Below are positions 11,141 through 24,386 of a DNA stretch of 64,000 nt, one piece after another. Position 1 is the stretch's first letter. Every line of letters starts with the position of its first letter. The stretch is from Parcubacteria group bacterium Greene0416_36 (lineage in GTDB: Bacteria; Patescibacteriota; Patescibacteriia; VMEV01). A program made the translations under genes and the position numbers. Under the pieces are notes generated by a model, which did not search any database, was not told the origin of the DNA, and saw only the letters and a program-made list of their open reading frames with translations. The stretch lies in NCBI GenBank assembly GCA_007375725.1, contig VMEV01000002.1, positions 45,992 through 109,991 of the forward strand, in the 5' to 3' direction.

Positions 11141-11290
11141 TATAAACGACAAGGTTTTATCCTTGGCAATAAAAGAATAAAAAGAAAACCCGCCCTGTTT
11201 AGTTTCGTGGATAAGTTGTTGATTTCTAGGTATTCTTTTAAAATGAATAGGGTTATAATAATGGAAAATTCTTTAGTCTTTTTTAACTTT

Positions 11291-12319
11291 ATGGGGGGAA
11301 ATTATGATTCTTGGTTGATTGATATTGAGTCTTTTCCAGCGGATAAAAGCTGGGAAGAGAGGATCAAGTTTTTAATTGGTTTTGCTGTCTTGGCTCCTTC
11401 TAGCCACAATAGCCAGCCTTGGGTATTCAAGATTCGCGAGAATGAACTGTTTATAAATTTTGAGGCATCACGCGATCTGCCAGGAAGCGACCCCGGTGGC
11501 AGGCAGGCATGGACAAGCATTGGATGTGCAATGGAGAATTTGTGTATTTCATCTTCTTTTTACGGGCTTTCTTATAAAATAGAATATTTTTTTGTGGGGA
11601 CGGAAGAACCTTTTGTGAAGGTGATTTTTGAGTTAGCGAAAAATAATGCGGTTAGGCCTTCCCGTACTCTCATGCAGGCAATGCTCAATCGCCGTACCAA
11701 TAGAGGTGCTTATGGCAGGAAGATTCCTCTAGATTTTATTTCTGATGCGGCGGGATTCAATTCTCCGGCGTGCCGTATTGATTTTGTGAGCGATCCTGCT
11801 GGAATAGAAAAAATCGGCGAGATTGTCATTTCTTCGACTATTGATGCTTTCCGCAATCCGCTTTTTGGGCAGGAGCTTTCTGGGTATGTGAAATCCAACT
11901 GGACCCGAGCGGGCGCGGGTATTCCGGGTTTCGCGTTGGGGATTCCGGCTCCTATTTCACTTCTTGCTTCCTTTATGGTTCGCCGATTCAATATGGGAGA
12001 GCTGGGGGCCAAACAGGACCGGCAATTATACCGGGAAGGAACGCCGGTTTGGGGGATGGTGTCCTGTTCGGGGGACCATCGGAAAGATTGGGTTTGCGCT
12101 GGCATGCTGTACGAGAAACTTGCGCTTTTGGCAACCAAAAAAGGATTGGCGAGCGCCATGCAAGCTGCTCCTGTCCAGGTTGGCGAGTATTGGAAGAGCC
12201 TGCAGGAAGTTTTCCGGACGAGTTTTCGTCCGCTGGCCTTGTTCCGTTTGGGTTATCCCAGCCGCGAGGCTCGGCCCACTCCGCGCTTTTCGGCGGATCA
12301 GGTTTTGATTAGCCGCTAA
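11291..12319 (+). CDS. Acg/Rv3131-type FMN-binding nitroreductase-family protein
   Basis: LAPSSHNSQPW, DPxGR...SIGCAMENL, RRTNRG and FRLGY...TPR motifs; start uncertain (11261 or 11291). Confidence 0.88.
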   Translation: MGGNYDSWLIDIESFPADKSWEERIKFLIGFAVLAPSSHNSQPWVFKIRENELFINFEASRDLPGSDPGGRQAWTSIGCAMENLCISSSFYGLSYKIEYFFVGTEEPFVKVIFELAKNNAVRPSRTLMQAMLNRRTNRGAYGRKIPLDFISDAAGFNSPACRIDFVSDPAGIEKIGEIVISSTIDAFRNPLFGQELSGYVKSNWTRAGAGIPGFALGIPAPISLLASFMVRRFNMGELGAKQDRQLYREGTPVWGMVSCSGDHRKDWVCAGMLYEKLALLATKKGLASAMQAAPVQVGEYWKSLQEVFRTSFRPLALFRLGYPSREARPTPRFSADQVLISR

Positions 12320-12329
12320 AATTTTTTTT

Positions 12330-14873
12330 ATGCAGAAAATTTCATGCCAGAGTTATCCGGACTTTGATAATCATGAATGCGTGGTCAAGATTGAGGATTC
12401 CTCCGTGGGACTTCTCGCTTTTATCGCGATTCATAATAGCGCCTTGGGTCCAGCCACCGGTGGAACGCGTATGTTTGATTACGGGACGGAAGAAGGGGCT
12501 GTCGCCGACGTGCTCCGCCTTTCCCGTGCGATGACCTACAAGTGCGCGGCTGCGGACGTGCCACATGGGGGAGGGAAGGCTGTGATCATGGGGGATCCTA
12601 GAAAAATGAAGACTCCGGCGCTTCTGCGCGCTTTTGCCAAAGCGGTCAATGAGCTGGAAGGAGCTTTTTCAACTGGAACCGATGCGGGGATTACAAAGGA
12701 AGATGTAGAAATCATGAGAGAAGTATCCGGTTTTATCAATGGGAAACATGGGGGAGACCCTGCTCCTTATGCGGCTCTGGGCACTTTTTATGGAATCCAA
12801 AGCGCATTACTGGAATGTTTCGGAAACGCGGATTGTCATGGGAGGGTCGTGGCCATCAAGGGAATAGGAAAAGTGGGGAGATCTTTGATCAGCCTCTTGG
12901 ACAAAGCAGGCGCGAAAATCATCGCGGCCGACATCGATGATGCCGCGGTCGCCTGGGTTAAGTCTCATTTTCCGTCGGTTCGATTGGCCAGTCCGTGGGA
13001 GATCCACCGCCAGAGGGCAGACGTGTTTTGTCCCTGTGCCATGGGGGGGGAGATCAGCCGCAAGGCCGCAATGGAAATTACGGCACGGATTGTCTGTGGC
13101 GCGGCCAATAACCAACTAAGGGATCCGGCTTGCGAGCAGATTTTATTTGGCCGAGGTATTTTGTATGTGCCTGATTTTGTCGCCAATGCTGGGGGGCTGA
13201 TCCATGTGGTCGACGAACTGGCTCCTCTGGGTTATGACGCGGACCGGGTTCGAGAGAAAATCAATAATATCAGATCCTTACTGGGGAATATTTTTGAGCT
13301 TGCAAGGAGGGATCTGCGGCTTCCCAACCAGGTGGCCGAGGAGATTGCAGAAAAAAAATTCAATAAAAAATATCCGGCAAGTCCTTTGGAGATTCACGAG
13401 AATGCAAAAACCCTCCTAGATCTTTATCTTTCCAAGGAAGACCCTTTTTGGGAAAGTTTGAGGGAGAAGAGAACCCTGGAACTGTTCCACGCGGCTGCCC
13501 GTTTGGTGCCCGCTTACTCTGATTTTCTCAAAAAACATGAAGTGAATCCTTCTAAAATCCGGACGTGGTCGGATTTCCAAAAAAATGTTCCCGTGATGGA
13601 TAAGAAAAATTATCTCCGGGCCTATCCCCTAGAGGCGATGACTTGGGGAGGAACCCTCAAAGGGAAGCCCCTTAATTTTGCCGCGACTTCAGGCTCCACT
13701 GGCGTTCCCTTCTATTTTCCCAGAAGCCCGCAGCTGGAGTGGCAGTGTTCGCTGACCCTCGAACTTTTTCTCCGGAGCAGTTCATTTGGCACCCAGGGTC
13801 CAATCGCAGTGATCAATGCTTTTTCTATGGGCGTGTGGATGGGCGGAATGATCACGTTCAAAGCGTTTGACATGATCAATCAGCGAGGCCATTGCCCGGT
13901 TTCGGTTCTATGTACCGGCAACAGCAAGCCGGCTATTTTTGCCGCTCTCCGCGAGTGGGCGCCGCACTTCAGCGAGGTCATTCTCATTGGTTATCCGCCC
14001 TTTATCAAAGATGTGATCGACGAGGGGCCGTCGGAGGGAATTGACTGGTCGAAGATCCGTTTGAGGCTGCATTTCGCGACCGAATCTTTTTCTGAAGAGT
14101 TTCGCGATTATATGGCCCAAAAAGCCTCTCTCAAAAATCCGTATTTGGACACCATGAATATTTATGGTTCCGCGGATATCGGCGCCATGGGTTTTGAGAC
14201 TCCCCAAGCCATACTTTTTAGGAAGTTGATTGTATCTAGCTCCGAGGCCGCTCAGGCTCTCTTCTCGGGCAAGACGGCAACGCTTGCGCAGTTCAATCCT
14301 TATTTCATCAATTTTGAAGCTCCGGATAAAAATGTTCTTCTCAGCGGCGACAACACCATTCCGCTTCTTCGGTACTCGCTGGGAGATAAGGGGGGGGTTT
14401 TGTCTTATAAGGATATGACTGCTCATATGGATACCCATGTTCCGCTGTGGAGGGAAGAAATGTCAAAAGCGGGGATCGTCCAGAGATATTCATTGCCGTT
14501 TGTCTATGTTTATGAGCGGGGAGACCTGTCCGTGAGTTTGTATGGAGCCAAGGTCTATCCGGAAACGATCCGAAAAGTTTTTCTCGAGGGCAGGTTCAGT
14601 GATTTCTATACTGGCAAGTTCACCTTGATTGTTCGCTATGACCAGGAGCAGAACCAGCATCTGGAGGTTCATGTGGAACAAAAAAAAGATGCTCCTCGGT
14701 CAGATTCTAAAATGCTCGCCGATGCGATTGTCGCCCTTTTGGTGCATGAAAATGCCGAGTACCGAAGTCATCATGATCAAATTCCGGACAAGGTTTTGCC
14801 GGACGTGATTCTATGGCCATTTGGGGATCCTCTGCATTTCGGGCCCAATCCCAAACAGCAGTGGATCAAATGA
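12330..14873 (+). CDS. Fusion: Leu/Phe/Val dehydrogenase (N-terminal ~345 aa) plus phenylacetate-CoA-ligase-like adenylate-forming domain
   Basis: GPATGGTRM, MTYK, GGGKAVI, GIGKVG, GAANNQL and PDFVANAGG, then TSGSTG, YGSAD and LRYSLGD, all in one frame. Confidence 0.88.
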   Translation: MQKISCQSYPDFDNHECVVKIEDSSVGLLAFIAIHNSALGPATGGTRMFDYGTEEGAVADVLRLSRAMTYKCAAADVPHGGGKAVIMGDPRKMKTPALLRAFAKAVNELEGAFSTGTDAGITKEDVEIMREVSGFINGKHGGDPAPYAALGTFYGIQSALLECFGNADCHGRVVAIKGIGKVGRSLISLLDKAGAKIIAADIDDAAVAWVKSHFPSVRLASPWEIHRQRADVFCPCAMGGEISRKAAMEITARIVCGAANNQLRDPACEQILFGRGILYVPDFVANAGGLIHVVDELAPLGYDADRVREKINNIRSLLGNIFELARRDLRLPNQVAEEIAEKKFNKKYPASPLEIHENAKTLLDLYLSKEDPFWESLREKRTLELFHAAARLVPAYSDFLKKHEVNPSKIRTWSDFQKNVPVMDKKNYLRAYPLEAMTWGGTLKGKPLNFAATSGSTGVPFYFPRSPQLEWQCSLTLELFLRSSSFGTQGPIAVINAFSMGVWMGGMITFKAFDMINQRGHCPVSVLCTGNSKPAIFAALREWAPHFSEVILIGYPPFIKDVIDEGPSEGIDWSKIRLRLHFATESFSEEFRDYMAQKASLKNPYLDTMNIYGSADIGAMGFETPQAILFRKLIVSSSEAAQALFSGKTATLAQFNPYFINFEAPDKNVLLSGDNTIPLLRYSLGDKGGVLSYKDMTAHMDTHVPLWREEMSKAGIVQRYSLPFVYVYERGDLSVSLYGAKVYPETIRKVFLEGRFSDFYTGKFTLIVRYDQEQNQHLEVHVEQKKDAPRSDSKMLADAIVALLVHENAEYRSHHDQIPDKVLPDVILWPFGDPLHFGPNPKQQWIK

Positions 14874-14915
14874 TTGCCAACTATTTTTTTAATCTTTTAT
14901 TTTTGATGAAAAAAT

Positions 14916-16100
14916 ATGAATATCGAGCAGTTTTTGCTGGAAAAACAAAAAGAGAATCTAGATATCAGCCGGCCTCTCGTTTTAAATTTGGCGGCTGAGT
15001 CTGGGAGAGTGCTTCTGGAATATCTCACTAAAGATGGCAAAATCGCTCGGGTATCGGATGATTTCGAGGAGCAGATGCGGGAATATTTTGCGGTAGAGCA
15101 TCCGGAACTTATTTTCCATCCTGAGTTTAAAAAATATTTCGAAGATTATTGGCAGGGCCTCCTCCACGAGAAGCCAAGATGGCAGCATGGAGTCTGGGTT
15201 TATTTTCCATGGATGCTGTCATTGATTCATGTCTTGGATGAAGAGGCATTCAATTGTGTCCGCACGGCTAGAAATAAGCACCTGATTACGGAAGCGGAAC
15301 AGAAAAAGTTTTATGAATCGACCATTGGAATCGCCGGCCTCAGCGTGGGAAATAGCGTGGCTCTCTCTATTGTTTTGGGCGGGGGAGCCAAGCGCATCAA
15401 GCTGGCTGATTTTGACCGCTTGTCCCTGTCCAATCTCAACCGCATCCGCGGCGGGGTGGAGTGTCTGGGTTTTCTGAAGGTCGAGATGACCGCGCGACAG
15501 ATCTACTCGCTCAATCCGTTTACAGAAGTGGAGTATTTCCCTGGCGGCCTCAATGAAGAGAATATGGATCGTTTTTTCGACGGGCTGGATCTCGTCGTCG
15601 ACGAAATCGATAATCTCGGCATCAAATACCGGATACGTCAGGAAGCCAAAAAACGCAAGCTGCCGGTTGTCATGGCTGCGGATAACGGTGATAATGGCGT
15701 GGTAGATATTGACCGTTATGATCTGGATCCTGAGCTCGAATTTTTCCATGGCCGCATGGGAGATCTCAAGTACGAAGATCTGATCCGCCTCAATAAGATG
15801 GAGATCGGGAAATTGATCACCCGGCTGGTGGGGCCTGAGAATGTGACTGAAAGAATGCAGCAGTCTCTCATGGAAATTGGAAAAACCGTGGTGTCCTGGC
15901 CTCAGCTGGGGGGCGCGGCGCTTCTCAACGGCTCGGCCGTTGCCTATTGCGTGCGTAGGATTCTCAATCATCAAAGTGTGTTTGATAACCGCACTCTCAT
16001 TTCATGGGATGAACTTATGGATCCTGAGCATAATACGGATCTGCAAAAAAAGCACCGAGCGGAGCTGACCCTCGAATTTAAGAAAAAGTTCGGTTTATAA
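14916..16100 (+). CDS. ThiF-family adenylyltransferase, Rv1355c/OxzB-like (no fused nitroreductase domain)
   Basis: WVYFPW...VRTARN..LIT..EQ N-terminal extension; IAGLSVG, LADFDRLSLSNLNR and SWPQL motifs. Confidence 0.88.
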   Translation: MNIEQFLLEKQKENLDISRPLVLNLAAESGRVLLEYLTKDGKIARVSDDFEEQMREYFAVEHPELIFHPEFKKYFEDYWQGLLHEKPRWQHGVWVYFPWMLSLIHVLDEEAFNCVRTARNKHLITEAEQKKFYESTIGIAGLSVGNSVALSIVLGGGAKRIKLADFDRLSLSNLNRIRGGVECLGFLKVEMTARQIYSLNPFTEVEYFPGGLNEENMDRFFDGLDLVVDEIDNLGIKYRIRQEAKKRKLPVVMAADNGDNGVVDIDRYDLDPELEFFHGRMGDLKYEDLIRLNKMEIGKLITRLVGPENVTERMQQSLMEIGKTVVSWPQLGGAALLNGSAVAYCVRRILNHQSVFDNRTLISWDELMDPEHNTDLQKKHRAELTLEFKKKFGL

Positions 16101-16167
16101 AAAAGACGATGGGATTACAGGGTGGAATAAGTTATAATATAATAAATTTATTTTTGTTTCGTCCCTT

Positions 16168-17040
16168 ATGAAAGCTGAACAGAGATTGTTGGGAAAGTTT
16201 GCAACTCCATTTACCCTCGGTCAAATAGATGTGGGAAATTTTCGGATCAATTACATTCAAGGGGGAAAAGGCGAGCCTCTGTTACTCATTCATGGAGCTA
16301 ATATCGGATGGGGCCAGTGGCACTTGAATCTGGATGAAATGGCTAAAAAAAATGAAGTATTCGCGATAGATTTACCAGGATCAGGAGGATCGACTAAAAT
16401 AGAAATGAAGGACTCAAATCTCGAAGAAGATTTTGTGGAGACAGTTCATCAGTTTCTAGAAAAAAAAGGAATTACTCAAGTAAATATCTGCGCACATTCT
16501 TTGGGTGGTTGGGTGGCTTTAAAGCTGTCACTTCGGGCCCCTCAACTTGTGAAGAAAATGGTGCTTCTCAGTCCGGTAGGGCTTTCTTCGTATTTGCCTT
16601 GGCAATATCGACTGATGGGTTTTTCTTTTTTCGTAAGAGTGCTTACCCAGAAATGTGTTCCGGTGAATAGAAAGAATATGGCAGATTTTCTAGGTAGTGT
16701 ATGCAAAAAGAAAGATTTTTTGACGGATGATTTCGTCGATTATTATTTTGAATCTATAACAAGGGGGGAGAGAGTGACACACCCCTTTTGGTGTATCCAC
16801 CGATTGTGTGATATTGGCAAGATGAGGTCTGAGTTTTATTTAGCGGATGAAATAAAAACCATCCGTGCGGAAGTACTATGGATTTGGGGCAGGGAAGATC
16901 CTTTATTTCCATTGAGAAAGAATGCCAATATTTCAAATGCTTTGAAAGGAAAAACTGAAGTTTTTGAGAATACTGGGCATGTTGCCTGTCTTGAAAATCA
17001 TTCGTTATTTAACGAGATTTGTTGTAGGTATCTGGGATAA
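16168..17040 (+). CDS. Alpha/beta-fold hydrolase
   Basis: LIHG, DLPGSG, nucleophile elbow AHSLGG, WGREDP and GH motifs. Confidence 0.9.
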   Translation: MKAEQRLLGKFATPFTLGQIDVGNFRINYIQGGKGEPLLLIHGANIGWGQWHLNLDEMAKKNEVFAIDLPGSGGSTKIEMKDSNLEEDFVETVHQFLEKKGITQVNICAHSLGGWVALKLSLRAPQLVKKMVLLSPVGLSSYLPWQYRLMGFSFFVRVLTQKCVPVNRKNMADFLGSVCKKKDFLTDDFVDYYFESITRGERVTHPFWCIHRLCDIGKMRSEFYLADEIKTIRAEVLWIWGREDPLFPLRKNANISNALKGKTEVFENTGHVACLENHSLFNEICCRYLG

Positions 17041-17061
17041 AAATACAAATTACAATTCCTT

Positions 17062-19230
17062 ATGGGGGGAGTTATAGCGCTAAGGCTAGGTATTTTGAGC
17101 GTTGTTATCGTTTTGAATTTTTTCGTTTCAATTTTTGTTTATAGAAAAAATCGCCAAAGTGCGACGAATATTATATTCGTTATTCTTACAGCTTTGATTT
17201 CCGCTTGGCTGGTAGTTTTGTTTTTGGCTGATTATCCTGAGCTTAATTTATTTTGGGCCAGAATGACTAATTTTGTGGCAACGGCGATGAGCCTTGCTTT
17301 TTTGCTTTTGGTTCACACATTACCAGACTTTCAGCTGAGAATGCGAAAACGTAGTTTGTTTTTTCTGCTAAGCGTGACCCTGATTGTCATGATAGCGACT
17401 GTTTCTCCCTATACATTTACAGGGATTGATATTGTGGATGGGGTTCGGCAAGTAAAAGTGGGGCCTGGGATGATTTTGTTTTCTCTGTTCAACCCTCTGT
17501 GTAATATCGCAGCTATTTATTTGCTCTTCGAGAAATATCGACGTGCTTCTGGGATAGAGAAACAGCAGCTGCGATTTATTCTTTTGGGTATTTTCGTCAT
17601 GTTCGCGATGATTATCGCGACTATTTTGATTCCTGTTTTATTTTTTCAGCAGCATTTTTACGTCGCCTTTGCTCCTTTGTATGCATTGTGTTTTATTTTT
17701 GGAACAGCTTATTCAATTGTCAAATATCGTTTCCTTGATATCCGCCTCGTGATACGAAAAAGCGTGGCATATGCATTGTCGCTGAGTGTGACCTTGGGGG
17801 TTTGCGGGCTCATCATGAATGCAATGATCTATGCGAGCCCCTATCAGTCCTGGTTCGGTTATTTTATTTTGGTTTTGGGCATTGTTTTATTCAATCCTAT
17901 CCACAAAAAAATATTGGTTATTTCCAATCGGTATTTTTTTCAGTCTTTTTATGATTATAGGAAAGCTCTGCTTGAAACTGGCCAGAAAATTTTGAGTCTC
18001 ATTACCCTCGAAGATATTTCGCGGGAGATTTTCGTACCCCTCTTGCGCAATTTACAGCTGGAATTTTGCGGCATTTATCTTTCATACAAAAAACCGTTTT
18101 TTCACGCCTTGTCTGAATCGGGAGAATTTGAAGTTCCCAAAAAAGAATTAGCGTCGCTCGCTCATTTATTGTCTCTTTATTCAAAAGGTAGAATTATTCT
18201 GGCTCAGGAATTCTATTCCCGCAAATTTCATCTTTCGGCTGAATTCAAGCAAAAGATGGTGAGCAATAAAATTGAGGTGATTTTGCCGCTCATTTCAGGT
18301 AAAAATTTTCTTGGGTTTTTATTTTTGGGCTCCAAAATTTCACGAGAACCCTTCACTCTTGAAGATATTCAGCTTTTGGAGCTTATCAATACCCAGCTTT
18401 CCCCGGCCATTGCCAATGCTAGCCACTTCCGAGAGCTCAAAATCGTCAATGTCCATTTGGAAGAAAAAGTGGCCGAACAAGTGCAAAAAATCCGAGATCT
18501 TTATGATGTCAAAGCCGAATTTTTGAGCATTAGCTCCCATCAGCTCCGAACCCCTCTGACCGTCATCATCGGGATGCTCGATATGATTCGAGAGGGAGCG
18601 GTGCGCGGCAAAAAACGCGATGATTTTTTATCTAAAGTAATGGCTTCGGCTGTGAGACTGAACCGGGTTGTCAATGATATTATGGATTCCCATGAATTGG
18701 ACCGTGGCGCCAAACATTACAAAAAAGGCCTTGTTGATTTACGTGATATGATTAAAAATGTCTATGATGCTTTTTTGCCTAAAGCTCAAGAGAAAAATGT
18801 GGAATTGAAATTAGATTTTGTATCTAGTAATTCATTGATTTGGGCGGACCCTAAAATTCGAGATGTTTTTGTCAATCTGATCGATAATGCCCTCTGCTAT
18901 ACCCCTAAAGGGGCGGTGACGGTGAAACTCTACAATTCAGATGCCCATCATGTTGGCGTGGACGTGGTGGATTCTGGGGTTGGCATGTCGAAAGATACGA
19001 TTGCGTCTCTCTTTCAGAAGTTTTCGCGAGGGAAGAATATTCGGCAGATCCGTCCCAATGGATCGGGGTTGGGATTGTTTATTGTGCGAAAAATTCTTGA
19101 AAATAATCACGGATCCGTTGAGGCAACCTCTATGGGAGAAGGTACTGGCAGTACCTTTTCCGTGCGCCTGCCGATTGCTTCTCCCAAATATTTGGTCCGG
19201 TCAGCGGAAAAGGAAAATGAAACCGAGTAG
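17062..19230 (+). CDS. Sensor histidine kinase: N-terminal 7TM-type membrane sensor, GAF-like domain, HisKA, HATPase
   Basis: Multiple TM helices, IVKYRFLDI, H-box SHQLRTPL, NLIDNA, DSGVG and GSGLGL. Confidence 0.92.
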   Translation: MGGVIALRLGILSVVIVLNFFVSIFVYRKNRQSATNIIFVILTALISAWLVVLFLADYPELNLFWARMTNFVATAMSLAFLLLVHTLPDFQLRMRKRSLFFLLSVTLIVMIATVSPYTFTGIDIVDGVRQVKVGPGMILFSLFNPLCNIAAIYLLFEKYRRASGIEKQQLRFILLGIFVMFAMIIATILIPVLFFQQHFYVAFAPLYALCFIFGTAYSIVKYRFLDIRLVIRKSVAYALSLSVTLGVCGLIMNAMIYASPYQSWFGYFILVLGIVLFNPIHKKILVISNRYFFQSFYDYRKALLETGQKILSLITLEDISREIFVPLLRNLQLEFCGIYLSYKKPFFHALSESGEFEVPKKELASLAHLLSLYSKGRIILAQEFYSRKFHLSAEFKQKMVSNKIEVILPLISGKNFLGFLFLGSKISREPFTLEDIQLLELINTQLSPAIANASHFRELKIVNVHLEEKVAEQVQKIRDLYDVKAEFLSISSHQLRTPLTVIIGMLDMIREGAVRGKKRDDFLSKVMASAVRLNRVVNDIMDSHELDRGAKHYKKGLVDLRDMIKNVYDAFLPKAQEKNVELKLDFVSSNSLIWADPKIRDVFVNLIDNALCYTPKGAVTVKLYNSDAHHVGVDVVDSGVGMSKDTIASLFQKFSRGKNIRQIRPNGSGLGLFIVRKILENNHGSVEATSMGEGTGSTFSVRLPIASPKYLVRSAEKENETE

Positions 19231-19287
19231 GTTGTATGGTTTTTATTGGAAAATGGCTAGAGGAAGCTGATTATTTTTTTTATATCC

Positions 19288-19334
19288 GTGGCATTTGTAG
19301 GGACGTTGCATTGCAACGTCCCTACAAATGCCAC
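19288..19334. repeat. REP-like palindrome GTAGGGACGTTGCA...CCCTAC with symmetric flanks
   Basis: Similar core at 59960-59987. Confidence 0.8.
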
Positions 19335-19376
19335 TAATTTGTGCTTATCTACACCTTATCCACATTGTGAATTACT

Positions 19377-20105
19377 ATGAAAGAGCAACTCATCAATTTA
19401 GGTTTTTCCGATTCCCAGGCCCGTTCGTACGAGATATTGCTCGAGCATCGTTGGGTTTTACCCTCCACCTTGGCCAAATTTTTGGGTATTTCACAAACCG
19501 GAGCGCAGAAGATTTTGAATTTCTTTTCCAGCGAAGGGTTGGTCCGTCAGCGGCCCATTGGCAAGAAAAATTATTACGGGATTACAGATTTGGGGGCGTT
19601 CGAAGATTTTTTGGCGCGGCGGGAGCTCCGGGCACTTCGAGAAATGGAGCGTCAAAAAGAGGAGGGCAGGAAGGCTCTCCAGGACGCGCACTTGAGTTTC
19701 TCCCAGAAAAATAAGGATTTATCGGTGTTTTTCGTCGATGGCCCCTCTCGTCTTTCCCATATCGAGACTCATATTCTCAATTGTGTCTCCGGCGATATTT
19801 TGGGGTTTTCTAGCGGTGAATTGAAATATAAAACTCTCACTGCCAAGTCCCCTGCCCAGCGATTCAAGATTATTTATACCGGCCCAAAATGCTCGCTTCC
19901 CAAAAAAGGCCAAGAACATTTCAGGGTGAAAGACCCCGCAGACTTGCCTCAAAATACGGTCGAAGTATTGCTGTTTCCGGACAAGGTTATTTTTGTGCTG
20001 GATGAGCAGGACCGCAATCTGGTCCTCTTGGATCCCTCGGTGGTGGAGACCCTTCGCTGCCTATTTTCATTGGCATTATCTAGCTCCCGAGTCGTTAAGC
20101 TTTAA
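19377..20105 (+). CDS. TrmB-like transcriptional regulator
   Basis: LINLGFSDSQARSYEILL...EGLV wHTH followed by an effector-type domain. Confidence 0.7.
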   Translation: MKEQLINLGFSDSQARSYEILLEHRWVLPSTLAKFLGISQTGAQKILNFFSSEGLVRQRPIGKKNYYGITDLGAFEDFLARRELRALREMERQKEEGRKALQDAHLSFSQKNKDLSVFFVDGPSRLSHIETHILNCVSGDILGFSSGELKYKTLTAKSPAQRFKIIYTGPKCSLPKKGQEHFRVKDPADLPQNTVEVLLFPDKVIFVLDEQDRNLVLLDPSVVETLRCLFSLALSSSRVVKL

Positions 20106-20291
20106 GCGCCGTCGCTTTTTGTATTTTAAACTGAACTAATTCGGTTTTTAATTCTGCCTTGTCTTTATTACATATATTTTATTTATCAACCCGTCTGTGT
20201 TTTTGTTGACAAATTGTGGATAACTCTGGTAAGCCTTATATCAATAATGTTTTATAACATTATTGGTTCTTTATAATCATATCTAGGGGGT

Positions 20292-20864
20292 ATGAGACAA
20301 AAAATATTTTTGTCTTCGGCCTCGGGAACCCTCTCCGCCACGGAAAGCTTGGTGGCTGTTGCCCGGTTTTTGTCGGGCGAGGGGCATCATCTTTTCTCCG
20401 ACCGAGACGCTCTCTCTGCAGCCCACCACTCGATCATTCTCTCTTCCGCTCTGGGAGATTCGCCACGAGAGATTGCGGGGCTGATGGATGCCTTTGTTTT
20501 TGAGGCCTCCGGAATGGATTTTGAAAAAGGTCTGTGGATGGCGTGGGCGGCGCTTGAAAGGAAGCCCGTTCTGGTTCTCGTGCCAAAAGGCAAACAAGCA
20601 AGTAGTTCTTTACGGGAATGGGAAAAATCATCGGATTTTTGTTCCCGCGTGGCGTATTATAGCCGCCATAATATCAAAGCGGTCGTGGCCGGTTTTCTCC
20701 AGTCCTTGGCTTTTTTCACCGAACGGGAAAATTCGGTGAAATTCACCCTCCGCGTTCAGCCCAAGCTTTTGGGCCATTTGCGCGGCAAGGCCCATCGAAT
20801 GGGAATCACTTCGGCCCGACTTTTGCGGGATCTGATCCGTGAAGATTTTCTGAAATCCCTCTAA
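20292..20864 (+). CDS. Nucleoside-2-deoxyribosyltransferase-like domain plus C-terminal ribbon-helix-helix (probable one-component regulator)
   Basis: DAFVFEAS...G..MAWA...KPVLVL, then KFTLRV...A..MGITSARLLRDLI. Confidence 0.55.
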   Translation: MRQKIFLSSASGTLSATESLVAVARFLSGEGHHLFSDRDALSAAHHSIILSSALGDSPREIAGLMDAFVFEASGMDFEKGLWMAWAALERKPVLVLVPKGKQASSSLREWEKSSDFCSRVAYYSRHNIKAVVAGFLQSLAFFTERENSVKFTLRVQPKLLGHLRGKAHRMGITSARLLRDLIREDFLKSL

Positions 20865-21004
20865 AAAGTTGAAAGCCTGTATCGTTGATACAGGCTTATA
20901 TTTTTCCGGTGTTTTATGACACATTTTTTTCTCCTTTAAAAGAACTTTTTTGTTTATCCTGATTTTATCAGCCAATCCTCTCCCCACAAGCAAGACTGGC
21001 TGTT

Positions 21005-21238
21005 TCAGGCGCTGATCGTGACCGGGTCGAGTATGTCGAAACTTTTTTCCACAAAGGCCTTTGTTGCGGTGATATCATCCCCTGTTATGTCAGCCATTGT
21101 CGCAATGGCTTGTTTGTGGTACAAGGCTCCTTTATCAAAGACTGCCTTGAGTTGAGCGATTATTTGCGTATCGAGAGCATTGGCTGATCCGCTCATTATT
21201 CTCACCAATGTATTATATTTAACTGTAGGTATACCCAT
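21005..21238 (-). CDS. Small orphan protein (77 aa)
   Basis: ATG preceded by AAAGGAG; divergent from 21410. Confidence 0.55.
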   Translation of the reverse strand: MGIPTVKYNTLVRIMSGSANALDTQIIAQLKAVFDKGALYHKQAIATMADITGDDITATKAFVEKSFDILDPVTISA

Positions 21239-21409
21239 TGCAGTCTCCTTTCAAGGAGAGCCATTTAAAATAACTCCAATTTACAAGTTTCATTACAGGC
21301 TATATTATAAGTTTTTTTGTGTCAAGTTGCAAAATGTGGATAAAAGTATTAAGTTTTCCTATTCGGGATTGTTATTTTTAAATATATTTTTTTTGTCTGG
21401 AGAGTTTTT

Positions 21410-22531
21410 ATGTCTGATTTATACGATAGATCATCAGCTATTTTGTCAAGTTTAAAGGTTACGAATGTCAGCAAAGGTCAGAAAATTAGGATGTTTTTTG
21501 CTGAAATTGTACAGTTTTATGTTTGGAGTGTGTTACCACCTGGTAAGTGTGCGTTGAGAATTCCAGAGAATTATAGATCAGGCGAGAAATTTAGTGACTT
21601 TAATCGTCTGAATTTGAAAGAGGCGGTTATTGCATTTCGTAAGATTTTTTTTGAAGAAGGAGGGTATCAGTGTTTATGGCCGCGGTGCTCTTATAGAGCA
21701 GAACATGGATTTGTTCTCAAGCTGGGCTATAAAGAAATGTTACGGAAGATTTTCCACTGGCATCAGGAACAAATTGAATCTGCGTCGATTGATGAGATTA
21801 TAGATTTTTTCGCTAAAATAGAAGAGGAGGAAAAACATCAGAAAAAGTCGATAGCCTGTCCTCATTGCCGTTGGTCGATGACCGCTATCTATTCGGAAGA
21901 AACTGTGGCTGAATATATTGATAAAGAGCTGAATTTTGATGTCCCTCCGGAAGATAAAACAAAGTTTTATCCGGTTTGGTCTACGATGGGGGATCCTTAT
22001 GACAATCGTATCTGTGGACTTTGTTTTGGGGCGATTACAATTAGGCAAATGTTTTCCTTCCTCTTTGTAAGAGAAGAATATAATTCGACGCATCTTCTGA
22101 ATGCTGGGATATTATATGCTAAGAGGCTCAAAACATTTTGGGATACCAAAAAATTGAATGCTTTGATGCCTTTTGCTTTGGTTTATATTCTTGGGACGAC
22201 ATTGGATTATCGAAATCGTGCCGCAAAAGATAATCAATTGGGATTGGAGCCAATTATTTTTTTGACACACCATATCATGTACCATGCTCAGAAAAATGGA
22301 AATAATTGGTTATTTTTGGCGACTAGAGATAAATCTTTGCTGGGCATTTTATCGGCGGCTGGATTTGAAGCGGTTCCTTCTCTTCCAGATGAACCTAGAG
22401 AATTTGCTTTGGAAGAGCAATGGACCATTCTCTATCATTCAGATGTCGGATCATTATTAGCTGTTGTGCAAAATACAAAACCCTCTGAATTCGCTCATCT
22501 GTTAAAAATGTGCGGGAAAGCATTCCACTAA
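21410..22531 (+). CDS. Divergent GNAT-like protein with Zn-ribbon-like insertion
   Basis: C-x4-C and CPHC motifs, ICGLCFG strand, ILGTTLDYRNR (motif-A-like), LFLAT...AAGF. Fold call is inference. Confidence 0.45.
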   Translation: MSDLYDRSSAILSSLKVTNVSKGQKIRMFFAEIVQFYVWSVLPPGKCALRIPENYRSGEKFSDFNRLNLKEAVIAFRKIFFEEGGYQCLWPRCSYRAEHGFVLKLGYKEMLRKIFHWHQEQIESASIDEIIDFFAKIEEEEKHQKKSIACPHCRWSMTAIYSEETVAEYIDKELNFDVPPEDKTKFYPVWSTMGDPYDNRICGLCFGAITIRQMFSFLFVREEYNSTHLLNAGILYAKRLKTFWDTKKLNALMPFALVYILGTTLDYRNRAAKDNQLGLEPIIFLTHHIMYHAQKNGNNWLFLATRDKSLLGILSAAGFEAVPSLPDEPREFALEEQWTILYHSDVGSLLAVVQNTKPSEFAHLLKMCGKAFH

Positions 22532-22751
22532 TGTTACTTATAACTAGTCCTAATAGGCTAGTTATTCTATTTTATAGCCAGCCCAGCTTGACTAAAATTC
22601 TGTCCAGTACCCGGAAAATTGGGCACGATTATAGGGATAAAAACCAAAATTAGTTCAACAAAATTGGAATTTTAAAAAAAAGTCCTAAGCCGGGCTTTTT
22701 TTATTGTGTTTTGTTTTGATTGCATTATAATGAAAAGATTTCATTATCTCT

Positions 22752-24386
22752 ATGAATTTGGTCTGGATATTTTCATTGATTGTTTCATTGGGGGCTTTTA
22801 TTTTAGGAGCCATTATTTTCTTGTATAAAAGCAAAAAAGGATCTAATTCGATCTTTGCATTGCTCTGTATCCTCTTAGGTTTTTGGTCTTTTTCTAATCT
22901 CCTTTCTTTTGGATCTTCAAATGACATTCAAATTTTATTCTGGTCTCAATTGACAATTGTCGGACCTTTTTTTGCCGGGCCTTTATTGTTCTTGTTTAGT
23001 ACGGTTTTTCCCGTACATCAGAGTATCTCAAGGAAATTTTTGTTTTATTTGTTTACGCCCGCTTTTCTTTCTTTGTTATTTGTTTTTTCGAGGTGGAATA
23101 TCTCGTCGGTATCTTCCGGCAATGAGTCACTTCAATTTGAACCCGGATTATTATATATCGTTTTGTTTATTTATCTCATGACTACGGTATCCGGCGCATT
23201 TTATAATTTGAGACTTTCATTTCTTCAGTCTGATGATACTTTAATCCGATCTCAAATTAAATTGGTTTCTTTGGGTTTCATCTGTTTGACCGCCCTAGGA
23301 GGGGGGACTAATTTGATTTCGCCTTTGTTTTTTGGAAATTCTCAAGGCTCTATTTGGGGGCCGCCTGTCTCTTTGTTTTTATTCATTATCTTTATCGGCC
23401 TCGCCATTCTTCGATACCGATTCCTTAATATCAGATTAATTTCCGTTCATGCCATTTCATTTTTCATCGCCTTTATTTTATTGTTTCAGGCTTTTTTTTC
23501 CGTGTCTGGCTTGGAATTGGCCTTCCGATTTTTATTTTTTATCATTGTTTCGATTTTATTGTTCTTCTTGTCCCGCTCCGTCGCGCATGAGATCAAAATC
23601 AAAAACGAATTAGCAAATTTGAACGTGGAATTGTCCCGGACAAACCGGAAGCTTGAGAATTTGAATAACCGTCTGCAGGTTTTGGATATCGCGAAATCCG
23701 AGTTCGTCTCTATCGCATCTCATCAGCTCCGGACGCCGCTGACTGTCATGAAGGGCTATCTGTCCATGATCGGCGAAGGGGTTTTTGGGCCGATGTCGTC
23801 TCGGCCGCTGCGAGACGTGATGAATAAAATGACGCGGAGTACGGACCGCTTGATCGATCTGGTCAATGATCTGCTCAATGTCTCGCATATCGAGAGCGGC
23901 AAGCTGGATTTGTATTGGGAGCACTTGGATGTTGGGGAATTGGCCTCGTCCGTCGTATCGGATCTGGCACCCAGAGCCTCCGTGAAAAAAATTAATATTC
24001 AGCTCAATCGGCCTTCGTTTGTGGTGGGCAAAGTTAAATCCGATGGCCGAAAATTGGCGGAAGTAATGACGAATTTGATCGATAATGCGATTAAATATTC
24101 TCCGGAGAATACGGTTGTGGATATCTTTGTCTATCAAAAATCAGGAGATGTCTTTTTTTCCGTCAGGGACCAAGGGATCGGTGTTGATCCCGCTAATATC
24201 GAGCGCTTGTTTCAGAAATTTTCTAGGATGGATGAGACTTATGTCACGAGGGTAGAGGGGTCGGGGCTGGGACTTTTTGTATGCAAAAAACTGATCGACA
24301 TGTTCGGCGGCCGTATTTGGGCTGAAAGCCGCGGCAAAGGCCACGGCTCCACTTTCACCTTTGCCCTGAAAGTTGTGGAATCATAA
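22752..24386 (+). CDS. Second 7TM-type sensor histidine kinase
   Basis: TM helices, AILRYRFLNI, SHQLRTPL, NLIDNAIKY, DQGIG and GSGLGL. Confidence 0.92.
   Translation: MNLVWIFSLIVSLGAFILGAIIFLYKSKKGSNSIFALLCILLGFWSFSNLLSFGSSNDIQILFWSQLTIVGPFFAGPLLFLFSTVFPVHQSISRKFLFYLFTPAFLSLLFVFSRWNISSVSSGNESLQFEPGLLYIVLFIYLMTTVSGAFYNLRLSFLQSDDTLIRSQIKLVSLGFICLTALGGGTNLISPLFFGNSQGSIWGPPVSLFLFIIFIGLAILRYRFLNIRLISVHAISFFIAFILLFQAFFSVSGLELAFRFLFFIIVSILLFFLSRSVAHEIKIKNELANLNVELSRTNRKLENLNNRLQVLDIAKSEFVSIASHQLRTPLTVMKGYLSMIGEGVFGPMSSRPLRDVMNKMTRSTDRLIDLVNDLLNVSHIESGKLDLYWEHLDVGELASSVVSDLAPRASVKKINIQLNRPSFVVGKVKSDGRKLAEVMTNLIDNAIKYSPENTVVDIFVYQKSGDVFFSVRDQGIGVDPANIERLFQKFSRMDETYVTRVEGSGLGLFVCKKLIDMFGGRIWAESRGKGHGSTFTFALKVVES

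Follow-up and report, generated by a model that had tools for sequence, protein, structure and literature searches.

We identified a conserved gene cassette of the Patescibacteria in a 64,000-nucleotide stretch of DNA from Parcubacteria group bacterium Greene0416_36 (contig VMEV01000002.1, positions 45,992 to 109,991), which we refer to as the window. The cassette occupies positions 11291-19230 and brings together a ThiF cyclase, a flavin oxidase, a PaaK-fold ligase and a seven-transmembrane (7TM) histidine kinase of the HisKA_7TM family. We lean, with a confidence a little above even, toward the reading that the product of this operon is an aryl-acyl amino-acid oxazolone, or the ring-opened form of one, which its own 7TM kinase senses as part of an autoinducer circuit. 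The cassette is real, conserved and undescribed in searchable papers; we found no description of it in the open-access literature that we searched. Its genes, all on the forward strand, are the following.

11291-12319, + strand: Acg-type flavin-dependent oxidase with a nitroreductase fold (match to NF047509 and to the C-terminal half of PRK07877)
12330-13382, + strand: Leu/Phe/Trp-type amino-acid dehydrogenase domain of a fusion protein (family match, conserved residues)
13383-14873, + strand: adenylating ligase domain of the same fusion, with a PaaK/NatL2/ClxA fold (predicted model, Foldseek, PDB profile search)
14916-16100, + strand: stand-alone ThiF cyclase of the Rv1355c/TrzS type (match to PRK07877)
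16168-17040, + strand: alpha/beta hydrolase with a Ser111-Asp244-His271 triad
17062-19230, + strand: kinase 1, HisKA_7TM-GAF-HisKA-HATPase (Pfam domains)

The host genome comprises 1.03 Mb in 25 contigs with a completeness rating of 100%. We analysed a 13-kb block of the window, 11291-24386, which holds two systems, with the core operon ending after kinase 1. Inside the core, the intergenic gaps measure 10, 42, 67 and 21 nt, and the hydrolase and kinase 1 have a GC content of 0.40-0.41 against 0.49-0.52 for the enzyme genes. All of the genes named in the initial annotation of the block were recovered on the forward strand and their family assignments hold, the GNAT label being an Atlas fold lead only. 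A promoter scan gave 33 matches against 22 by chance, a mild excess that we leave out of the argument.

The cassette recurs throughout the phylum. Among 401 genomes, 39 have a ThiF homologue and 43 have the ligase, with 36 of the 39 ThiF genomes holding both; 33 of the 39 carry HisKA_7TM as against 142 of the other 362, although these genomes are related and do not count as independent. We compared 120 ThiF neighbourhoods: a first set of 40 (37 of the 38 other ThiF genome matches plus three more) and a second set of 80 named loci, which are the highest-ranking 80 among 389 matches returned by a 13-row alignment from named genomes, where a single-protein query returned none. Among these best 80, the titles that give a lineage all read Patescibacteria or candidate phyla radiation (CPR). 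Of the first 40 loci, 34 have the ligase within 6 kb of ThiF, 27 the oxidase and 31 a 7TM kinase; the corresponding figures for the second set of 80 are 77, 64 and 56, which gives totals of 111/120 for the ligase and 87/120 for the kinase. Where at least 4 kb of flank is available on each side, the kinase counts become 27 of 32 and 38 of 48. The co-occurrence of enzymes and kinase in other CPR genomes, which the initial annotation had put forward as a check, is thus borne out. One locus, L193, repeats the gene order of the window with a single extra open reading frame (ORF). A family of about 305 residues lies directly 5' of the kinase in six cassettes (L135:10647-11579 and five relatives), and the two members scanned have no Pfam match.

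The ThiF cyclase and the oxidase correspond to the two halves of Rv1355c-type proteins, in agreement with the earlier proposal of a split oxazolone synthetase; both partners of the Rv1355c/OxzB/TyzB group, the cyclase and an Acg-like oxidase, are present in one operon. The stand-alone ThiF protein aligns with the N-terminal half of the Rv1355c family model PRK07877 (335 bits, E = 6e-100, model positions 4-350; the cut-off of 476 bits applies to the whole fused protein), compared with 31-81 bits for all other ThiF-type models. It shares 33-42% identity with fused Rv1355c-type proteins (BLAST E values of 1e-70 to 1e-90), contains the motifs RTARN, GLSVG, SNLNR and DEID, and is without a CxxC motif. 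The oxidase, whose start codon may lie anywhere in the range 11243-11291, scores 180 bits against the Acg family model NF047509 (cut-off 199) and aligns with 12 fused Rv1355c-type proteins over their C-terminal half (BLAST E values of 3e-61 to 2e-8). Its APSxxNxQPW motif, together with Arg134 and Arg138, is kept in 34 aligned rows. In TrzS (Rv1355c), an N-acyl amino acid is cyclised with ATP and then desaturated with O2, and the closest solved homologue of the TrzS oxidase is Acg (PMC12856293). By homology, the ThiF protein likely performs an ATP-dependent ring closure, and the oxidase likely acts as a desaturase. The invariant Asp232 and Arg138 are putative counterparts of the TrzS catalytic residues Asp217 and Arg540.

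The adjacent acyl-CoA-dependent N-acyltransferase that characterises OxzAB-type pathways was not found, and a ligase is present in the operon. OxzA and TyzA are acyl-CoA transferases, TyzA being FeeM/BjaI-like (PMC10404671). We detected no match to FeeM-type PF21926 in the genome, no match in the 120 loci to a FeeM model built from five CPR proteins, and no acyltransferase of the OxzA, TyzA or TrzA type among the 26 of 34 in-cassette accessory ORFs scanned. The genome, rated 100% complete, also yields no match for acyl carrier protein, ketoacyl synthase or CoaE. The predicted model of the ligase domain (mean predicted local distance difference test score, pLDDT, 90.7) most closely resembles PaaK in Foldseek (E = 3e-23), followed by NatL2, AjiA1 and ClxA, and its ANL adenylation motifs are intact within the PaaK fold. 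Against PDB sequences, a profile search of the ligase returns matches and a single-sequence search returns none. ClxA joins an aryl acid to an amine via an adenylate (PMC12519233). Judging from the predicted fold, the ligase likely takes the place of OxzA and forms the amide.

Near the ligase we observe a variable slot for a precursor-supplying gene. Across the 120 loci, it is filled by a dehydrogenase in 34, a class I/II aminotransferase in 18, an aromatic ammonia-lyase in 13 and a protein resembling short-chain dehydrogenases/reductases (SDRs) in seven; some of the aminotransferases, several kb away, may be bystanders. No locus contains two slot kinds (0 of 117, the 120 less three likely duplicates), compared with 11.9 expected and a minimum of four in 5000 shuffles. 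The ThiF and ligase trees follow the precursor gene only loosely. For the ammonia-lyases, the best model is that of the tyrosine ammonia-lyase FlxA (618 of 700 bits). The three known enzyme types of the slot share one reaction, in which an amino group is removed and a carboxylic acid is left. The SDR-like family (L047:12112-13191 and six relatives) carries a strongly conserved Gly/Thr-rich motif.

In the dehydrogenases, both catalytic-site lysines are kept in 34 of 34 rows and the side-chain pocket is predicted to be enlarged. The position of the pocket Ala of leucine dehydrogenase (LeuDH) is Gly in all 34 rows, as in tryptophan dehydrogenase, and that of the LeuDH Val is Leu in 33 of 34, a combination that we take to be the signature of Bacillus PheDH. 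Exchange of Ala113 for Gly widens the pocket (PMC9401909). The residue pattern suggests that the dehydrogenase likely supplies an aryl 2-oxo acid. Because the known slot enzymes share a deamination reaction and the dehydrogenase pocket has the Gly/Leu pair, the slot gene likely supplies an aryl acid, which is the likely acyl donor.

In the window, the dehydrogenase (Leu/Phe/Val dehydrogenase family) and the PaaK-like ligase form a single ORF of 847 residues (12330-14873), as the initial annotation had described for this fusion. Elsewhere the two genes often abut, and none of the 120 related loci contains the fusion. A search for further dehydrogenase-ligase fusions returned 20 matches among 8000 scored candidates (proteins of 465-1483 residues), no other of about 850 residues with just these domains; within these searches the fusion is confined to the present genome. 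The fusion fits channelling between the dehydrogenase and ligase steps. With respect to an assembly error at the joint, the coding letters of the stretch including the fusion are identical in contigs of four groundwater-metagenome runs; these runs belong to one study and may derive from the source DNA, so the agreement is not independent support.

The alpha/beta hydrolase was listed earlier as a component of the system. It lies inside the core operon with its triad intact, and it occurs in only six of the 120 related loci, which makes it an accessory. It travels with the kinase and not with ThiF, its ThiF and ligase partners falling in different clades, and from its sequence it likely opens or clears the product.

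Kinase 1 retains intact H, N, G1, F and G2 boxes. In a 30-row sensor tree it falls in the cassette clade (support 97/89) and, within it, in the hydrolase subclade of four cassettes (100/99), with bootstrap values that are not fully settled. The model of its sensor (pLDDT 93.7) consists of seven helices and an outer hairpin, and the best structural matches are class C G-protein-coupled receptors (GPCRs; Z = 14.7, root-mean-square deviation 3.6 over 219 residues); Foldseek gives weak GPCR matches with a best E value of 8e-4. The sensor family (PF16927) has no CqsS or LuxN model match in NCBIfam, and its profile finds no PDB sequence. GPCR-like folds in histidine kinases have already been published (PMC13581589), and in the accessible text of the papers that name HisKA_7TM no ligand is given.

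The layout of a synthase gene followed by its receptor extends well beyond the cassette. We examined 60 other 7TM-kinase loci, top matches with enough flanking DNA that were chosen blind to their neighbours, and called synthases at a Pfam E value of 1e-7 or below in the two genes on each side of the kinase (ORFs scanned: 89 of 116 listed plus seven added upstream, 91 of 102 downstream). A small-molecule synthase lies upstream in 32 of 60 loci and downstream in three (six by a looser count). The upstream classes are S-adenosylmethionine methyltransferases, FeeM/LuxI proteins, CqsA-like pyridoxal-phosphate enzymes, short ThiF proteins, acyltransferases, UbiA, SHMT, and histidine, ornithine and arginine decarboxylases. 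When synthase type is mapped on a tree built from 107 sensor domains, it requires 14 changes, where the minimum is 11 and the mean after shuffling is 36. The labelled cassette kinases, 32 in number and drawn from 26 host families, all fall into one group, and the members of several host families are spread over two or three synthase types. Host family itself gives a weak test on this tree, where 68 rows are divided among 51 families. Synthase and intact membrane kinase are thus linked and co-inherited, as in systems of the CqsA/CqsS type, and sensors that group by synthase type show the pattern expected of matched synthase-receptor pairs. Kinase 1 is likely the cognate receptor of the cassette product, as far as these sequence relationships indicate.

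Among the individual loci upstream of HisKA_7TM kinases, we observed pyruvoyl histidine decarboxylases (L101, L121, L123), ornithine decarboxylase with a GNAT (L074, L081, L094), an NNMT/PNMT-family methyltransferase (L130), SHMT (L072, L075), a PigE/acyl-ACP-reductase-like protein with an acyltransferase (L077, L112) and a short ThiF with a methyltransferase (L080, L102). Genes in this position (L071-L130) represent many unstudied candidate signal synthases. A FadL/TodX-type outer-membrane barrel, odd in CPR bacteria, is encoded 5' of a methyltransferase and 7TM kinase at L079:8544-9758. At L069:3464-6291 and L099:8354-10363, 7TM sensor genes form arrays beside synthase cassettes, and several of these genes lack a kinase part.

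The genome encodes four receiver domains, two of them in a Che cluster and two stand-alone. One stand-alone receiver (L211:5551-5952, in the region L211:1481-5952) is directly 5' of pilB-pilC-pilM and the other (L212:4394-4804, in the region L212:2088-4804) directly 3' of comEC; genome G001, which belongs to the same taxonomic order, has a row made up of a 7TM piece, then a kinase, a receiver and finally pilB. Receivers near cassettes are likewise stand-alone, about 115-190 residues long and without a DNA-binding part. A reasonable guess is that the output of the circuit is control of pili and DNA uptake, and four other HisKA kinases in the genome might also feed the stand-alone receivers. The Che cluster itself (L213, G000:C19:33001-43100) reads MCP, CheW, CheC-like/receiver, CheB, CheA, CheC and CheD, followed by a PAS kinase.

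Taken together, these features outline a route. The dehydrogenase would convert an aromatic amino acid to its 2-oxo acid, working in the deaminating direction. The PaaK-fold ligase would adenylate the acid and link an amino acid to it, with no OxzA-type transferase involved, by analogy with ClxA and NatL2. ThiF would then adenylate the free carboxyl group and close the oxazolone, which the oxidase would desaturate, as do their homologues TrzS and TyzB/TyzC, and the hydrolase, through its triad, would open or clear the ring. The product would bind the 7TM domain of kinase 1, which would signal to the stand-alone receivers, likely those positioned in the operons for type IV pili and competence. 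Considered separately, oxazolone-type chemistry and self-sensing each seem to us probable.

Several observations weigh against this route. The oxidase is missing near ThiF in 13 of 40 and 16 of 80 loci and a slot gene in 48 of 120, partly through short contigs, and in one family (L036-L042) the cassette genes are scattered. The CoA ligase PaaK outranks NatL2 and ClxA among the closest solved folds, and the genome holds one long-chain acyl-CoA synthetase-like gene, because of which scavenged coenzyme A may be used. Known oxidases of this type require O2 (PMC12856293). On the receptor side, Z values near 13-14 are common for helical bundles by arrangement alone, and the list of synthase classes behind the 32-versus-3 count was fixed after the upstream matches were known. 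Linkage alone yields co-inheritance of neighbours, from which ligand specificity does not follow.

An alternative that we consider unlikely is that an oxazolone-type product is aimed at the host or at competitors, with the kinase just regulating the operon on an outside cue. Regulators often adjoin the genes under their control, HisKA_7TM is common in genomes without the cassette (the 142 of 362 above), and the oxazolones of Proteobacteria are induced by antibiotics and have no known receptor in the accessible literature. Set against this are the sorting of sensor domains by adjoining synthase type across host families, the presence of the same kinase family behind LuxI/FeeM and CqsA-like genes, and the stand-alone form of the receivers near cassettes.

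Somewhat less likely again is a synthase-receptor pair with a product other than an oxazolone, for example an ester, an aryl 2-oxo acid dimer, an N-acyl dehydro-amino acid or a different heterocycle. An ester is what NatL2 forms first (PMC12519233), a 2-oxo-acyl group could cyclise in other ways, and the hydrolase would open an oxazolone; in the case of the stieleriacine and thalassotalic-acid clusters, no oxazolone was seen despite the presence of ThiF and nitroreductase genes (PMC12479983). Against this reading, the tested members of the Rv1355c-type proteins, to whose two halves ThiF and the oxidase correspond, make oxazolones. We give very little weight to the idea that the ThiF/E1-like enzyme and oxidase act on a peptide, a protein C terminus or a tRNA in the manner of TcdA or of peptides that are made on the ribosome and modified after translation: ThiF-like enzymes are described as acting mostly on such substrates, but the Rv1355c model scores 335 bits where the ThiF, MoeB and TcdA models reach 31-66, no YcaO is found among the cassette genes scanned (ORFs of 70 residues or more), and the constant partners are a ligase and a deaminating enzyme.

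Downstream of kinase 1, the remainder of the 13-kb block carries the following features.

19288-19334, no strand: palindrome resembling repetitive extragenic palindromes, directly 3' of kinase 1, with six more copies in the genome
19377-20105, + strand: TrmB-like helix-turn-helix regulator (Pfam)
20292-20864, + strand: nucleoside-deoxyribosyltransferase-like domain with a CopG/ribbon-helix-helix-type tail (Atlas)
21410-22531, + strand: orphan with a predicted GNAT fold (Atlas fold lead)
22752-24386, + strand: kinase 2, HisKA_7TM-HisKA-HATPase (Pfam)

After kinase 1, the gene run is broken by the palindrome and by gaps of 146-545 nt; the palindrome is the likely boundary at which the core operon stops. 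The genes previously described as co-directional also have among them a 77-residue ORF on the reverse strand (21005-21238), between the regulators and the GNAT-like gene, to which Pfam gives no match. TrmB-like genes occur in three of 120 loci, and this regulator is no fixed part of the cassette. The gene at 20292-20864 had been labelled a ribbon-helix-helix regulator; Atlas does place its tail with CopG-type clusters, together with an additional nucleoside-deoxyribosyltransferase-like domain, and Pfam gives no match. Neither this gene nor that at 21410 has a homologue in the 101 loci compared, and the former lies outside the cassette. The GNAT-like label of 21410-22531 likewise stands in part. 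Its Atlas fold resembles arylalkylamine N-acetyltransferases (template-modelling score about 0.5), while Pfam, two protein searches for homologues and a model built from GNATs that adjoin related kinases all return no match.

Kinase 1 and kinase 2 are the genome's sole HisKA_7TM kinases. Their sensors are not sisters (approximately unbiased, AU, test, p = 0.003), and the nearest sensors to that of kinase 2 adjoin GNAT and ornithine-decarboxylase genes; the support of the kinase 2 clade is moderate (85/93) and is lost in a 168-row tree, which counts against this placement. The GNAT-fold gene and kinase 2 likely form a second, separate synthase-receptor pair, to judge from the predicted fold, and we hold this reading at lower confidence because 220 nt and two hairpins lie between the two genes. 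The initial annotation had instead treated the whole 13 kb as one candidate system with the membrane kinases as receptors. For a version of this in which the GNAT-like protein is the OxzA equivalent and both kinases read the same molecule, the shared orientation of the named genes, the confinement of both HisKA_7TM kinases to this block and the acyltransferase nature of the GNAT fold speak in favour, but with an orphan that has no homologue in any cassette, an acyl step more likely performed by the PaaK-fold ligase, sensors that cannot be sisters, and hairpins and long gaps between the sections, it is highly improbable.

Single parts of the cassette, and its principle, are already known, and the whole may be likened to TyzBC chemistry joined to CqsA/CqsS logic. 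TrzAS (Rv1356c/Rv1355c), TyzACB and OxzAB employ the same families of ThiF cyclase and Acg-like oxidase (PMC12856293, PMC10404671, 10.1101/2020.06.11.147165), and TyzB/TyzC already provide a split cyclase-oxidase form. In contrast to these systems, the cassette has a PaaK-fold ligase and a deaminating enzyme where no acyltransferase of their type was found, a membrane kinase in most loci and a host without fatty-acid synthesis genes. The ligases NatL2, AjiA1 and ClxA of benzoxazole biosynthesis (PMC12519233) have the same fold as the cassette ligase at about 15% identity, and the reaction to which we liken it is theirs, in which ATP drives the joining of an aryl acid with an amine or hydroxyl group before a heterocycle forms; in the cassette, ring closure would fall to ThiF and the acid would come from amino-acid deamination. 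The stieleriacine, thalassotalic acid and kyonggic acid clusters (PMC12479983) have separate ThiF and nitroreductase genes, as here, and make N-acyl dehydro-amino acids, a possible ring-opened end product of the cassette too. They differ in using an N-acyl amino acid synthase and fatty acyl chains, and the main text of that paper mentions no ligase.

A synthase gene beside a multi-helix membrane kinase is also the arrangement of CqsA/CqsS, LqsA/LqsS and the CPR pairs of Bernard et al. 2020, who reported 51 CqsA, 18 LuxI and three PpyS homologues beside CPR sensory kinases (PMC7567580). The cassette differs in its synthase chemistry and in its HisKA_7TM (PF16927) sensor. In that study, the terms 'ThiF' and '7TM' are absent from the main text and nine supplementary files, and 'PaaK' is absent from those files.

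A wider reading, which we put forward tentatively and at somewhat less than even confidence, is that Patescibacteria share a phylum-wide chemical language, in which a family of GPCR-fold kinases is paired with swappable synthases. The cassette would be its oxazolone dialect, made from amino acids alone and steering type IV pili and DNA uptake, and this genome would have two channels. Through the wider pattern, dozens of synthase-receptor pairs become available for cross-testing. What oxazolones do physiologically has been called a major unresolved question, with signalling among the suggestions (PMC12856293), and an oxazolone synthetase kept beside one receptor-kinase clade makes a signalling role testable in a laboratory host. 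If our reading is true, HisKA_7TM would gain a ligand, an acyltransferase-free route to the oxazolone ring would be added, and oxazolones would acquire a role in cell-to-cell signalling. The way in which minimal epibionts gauge their own number or time their attachment would also come to light.

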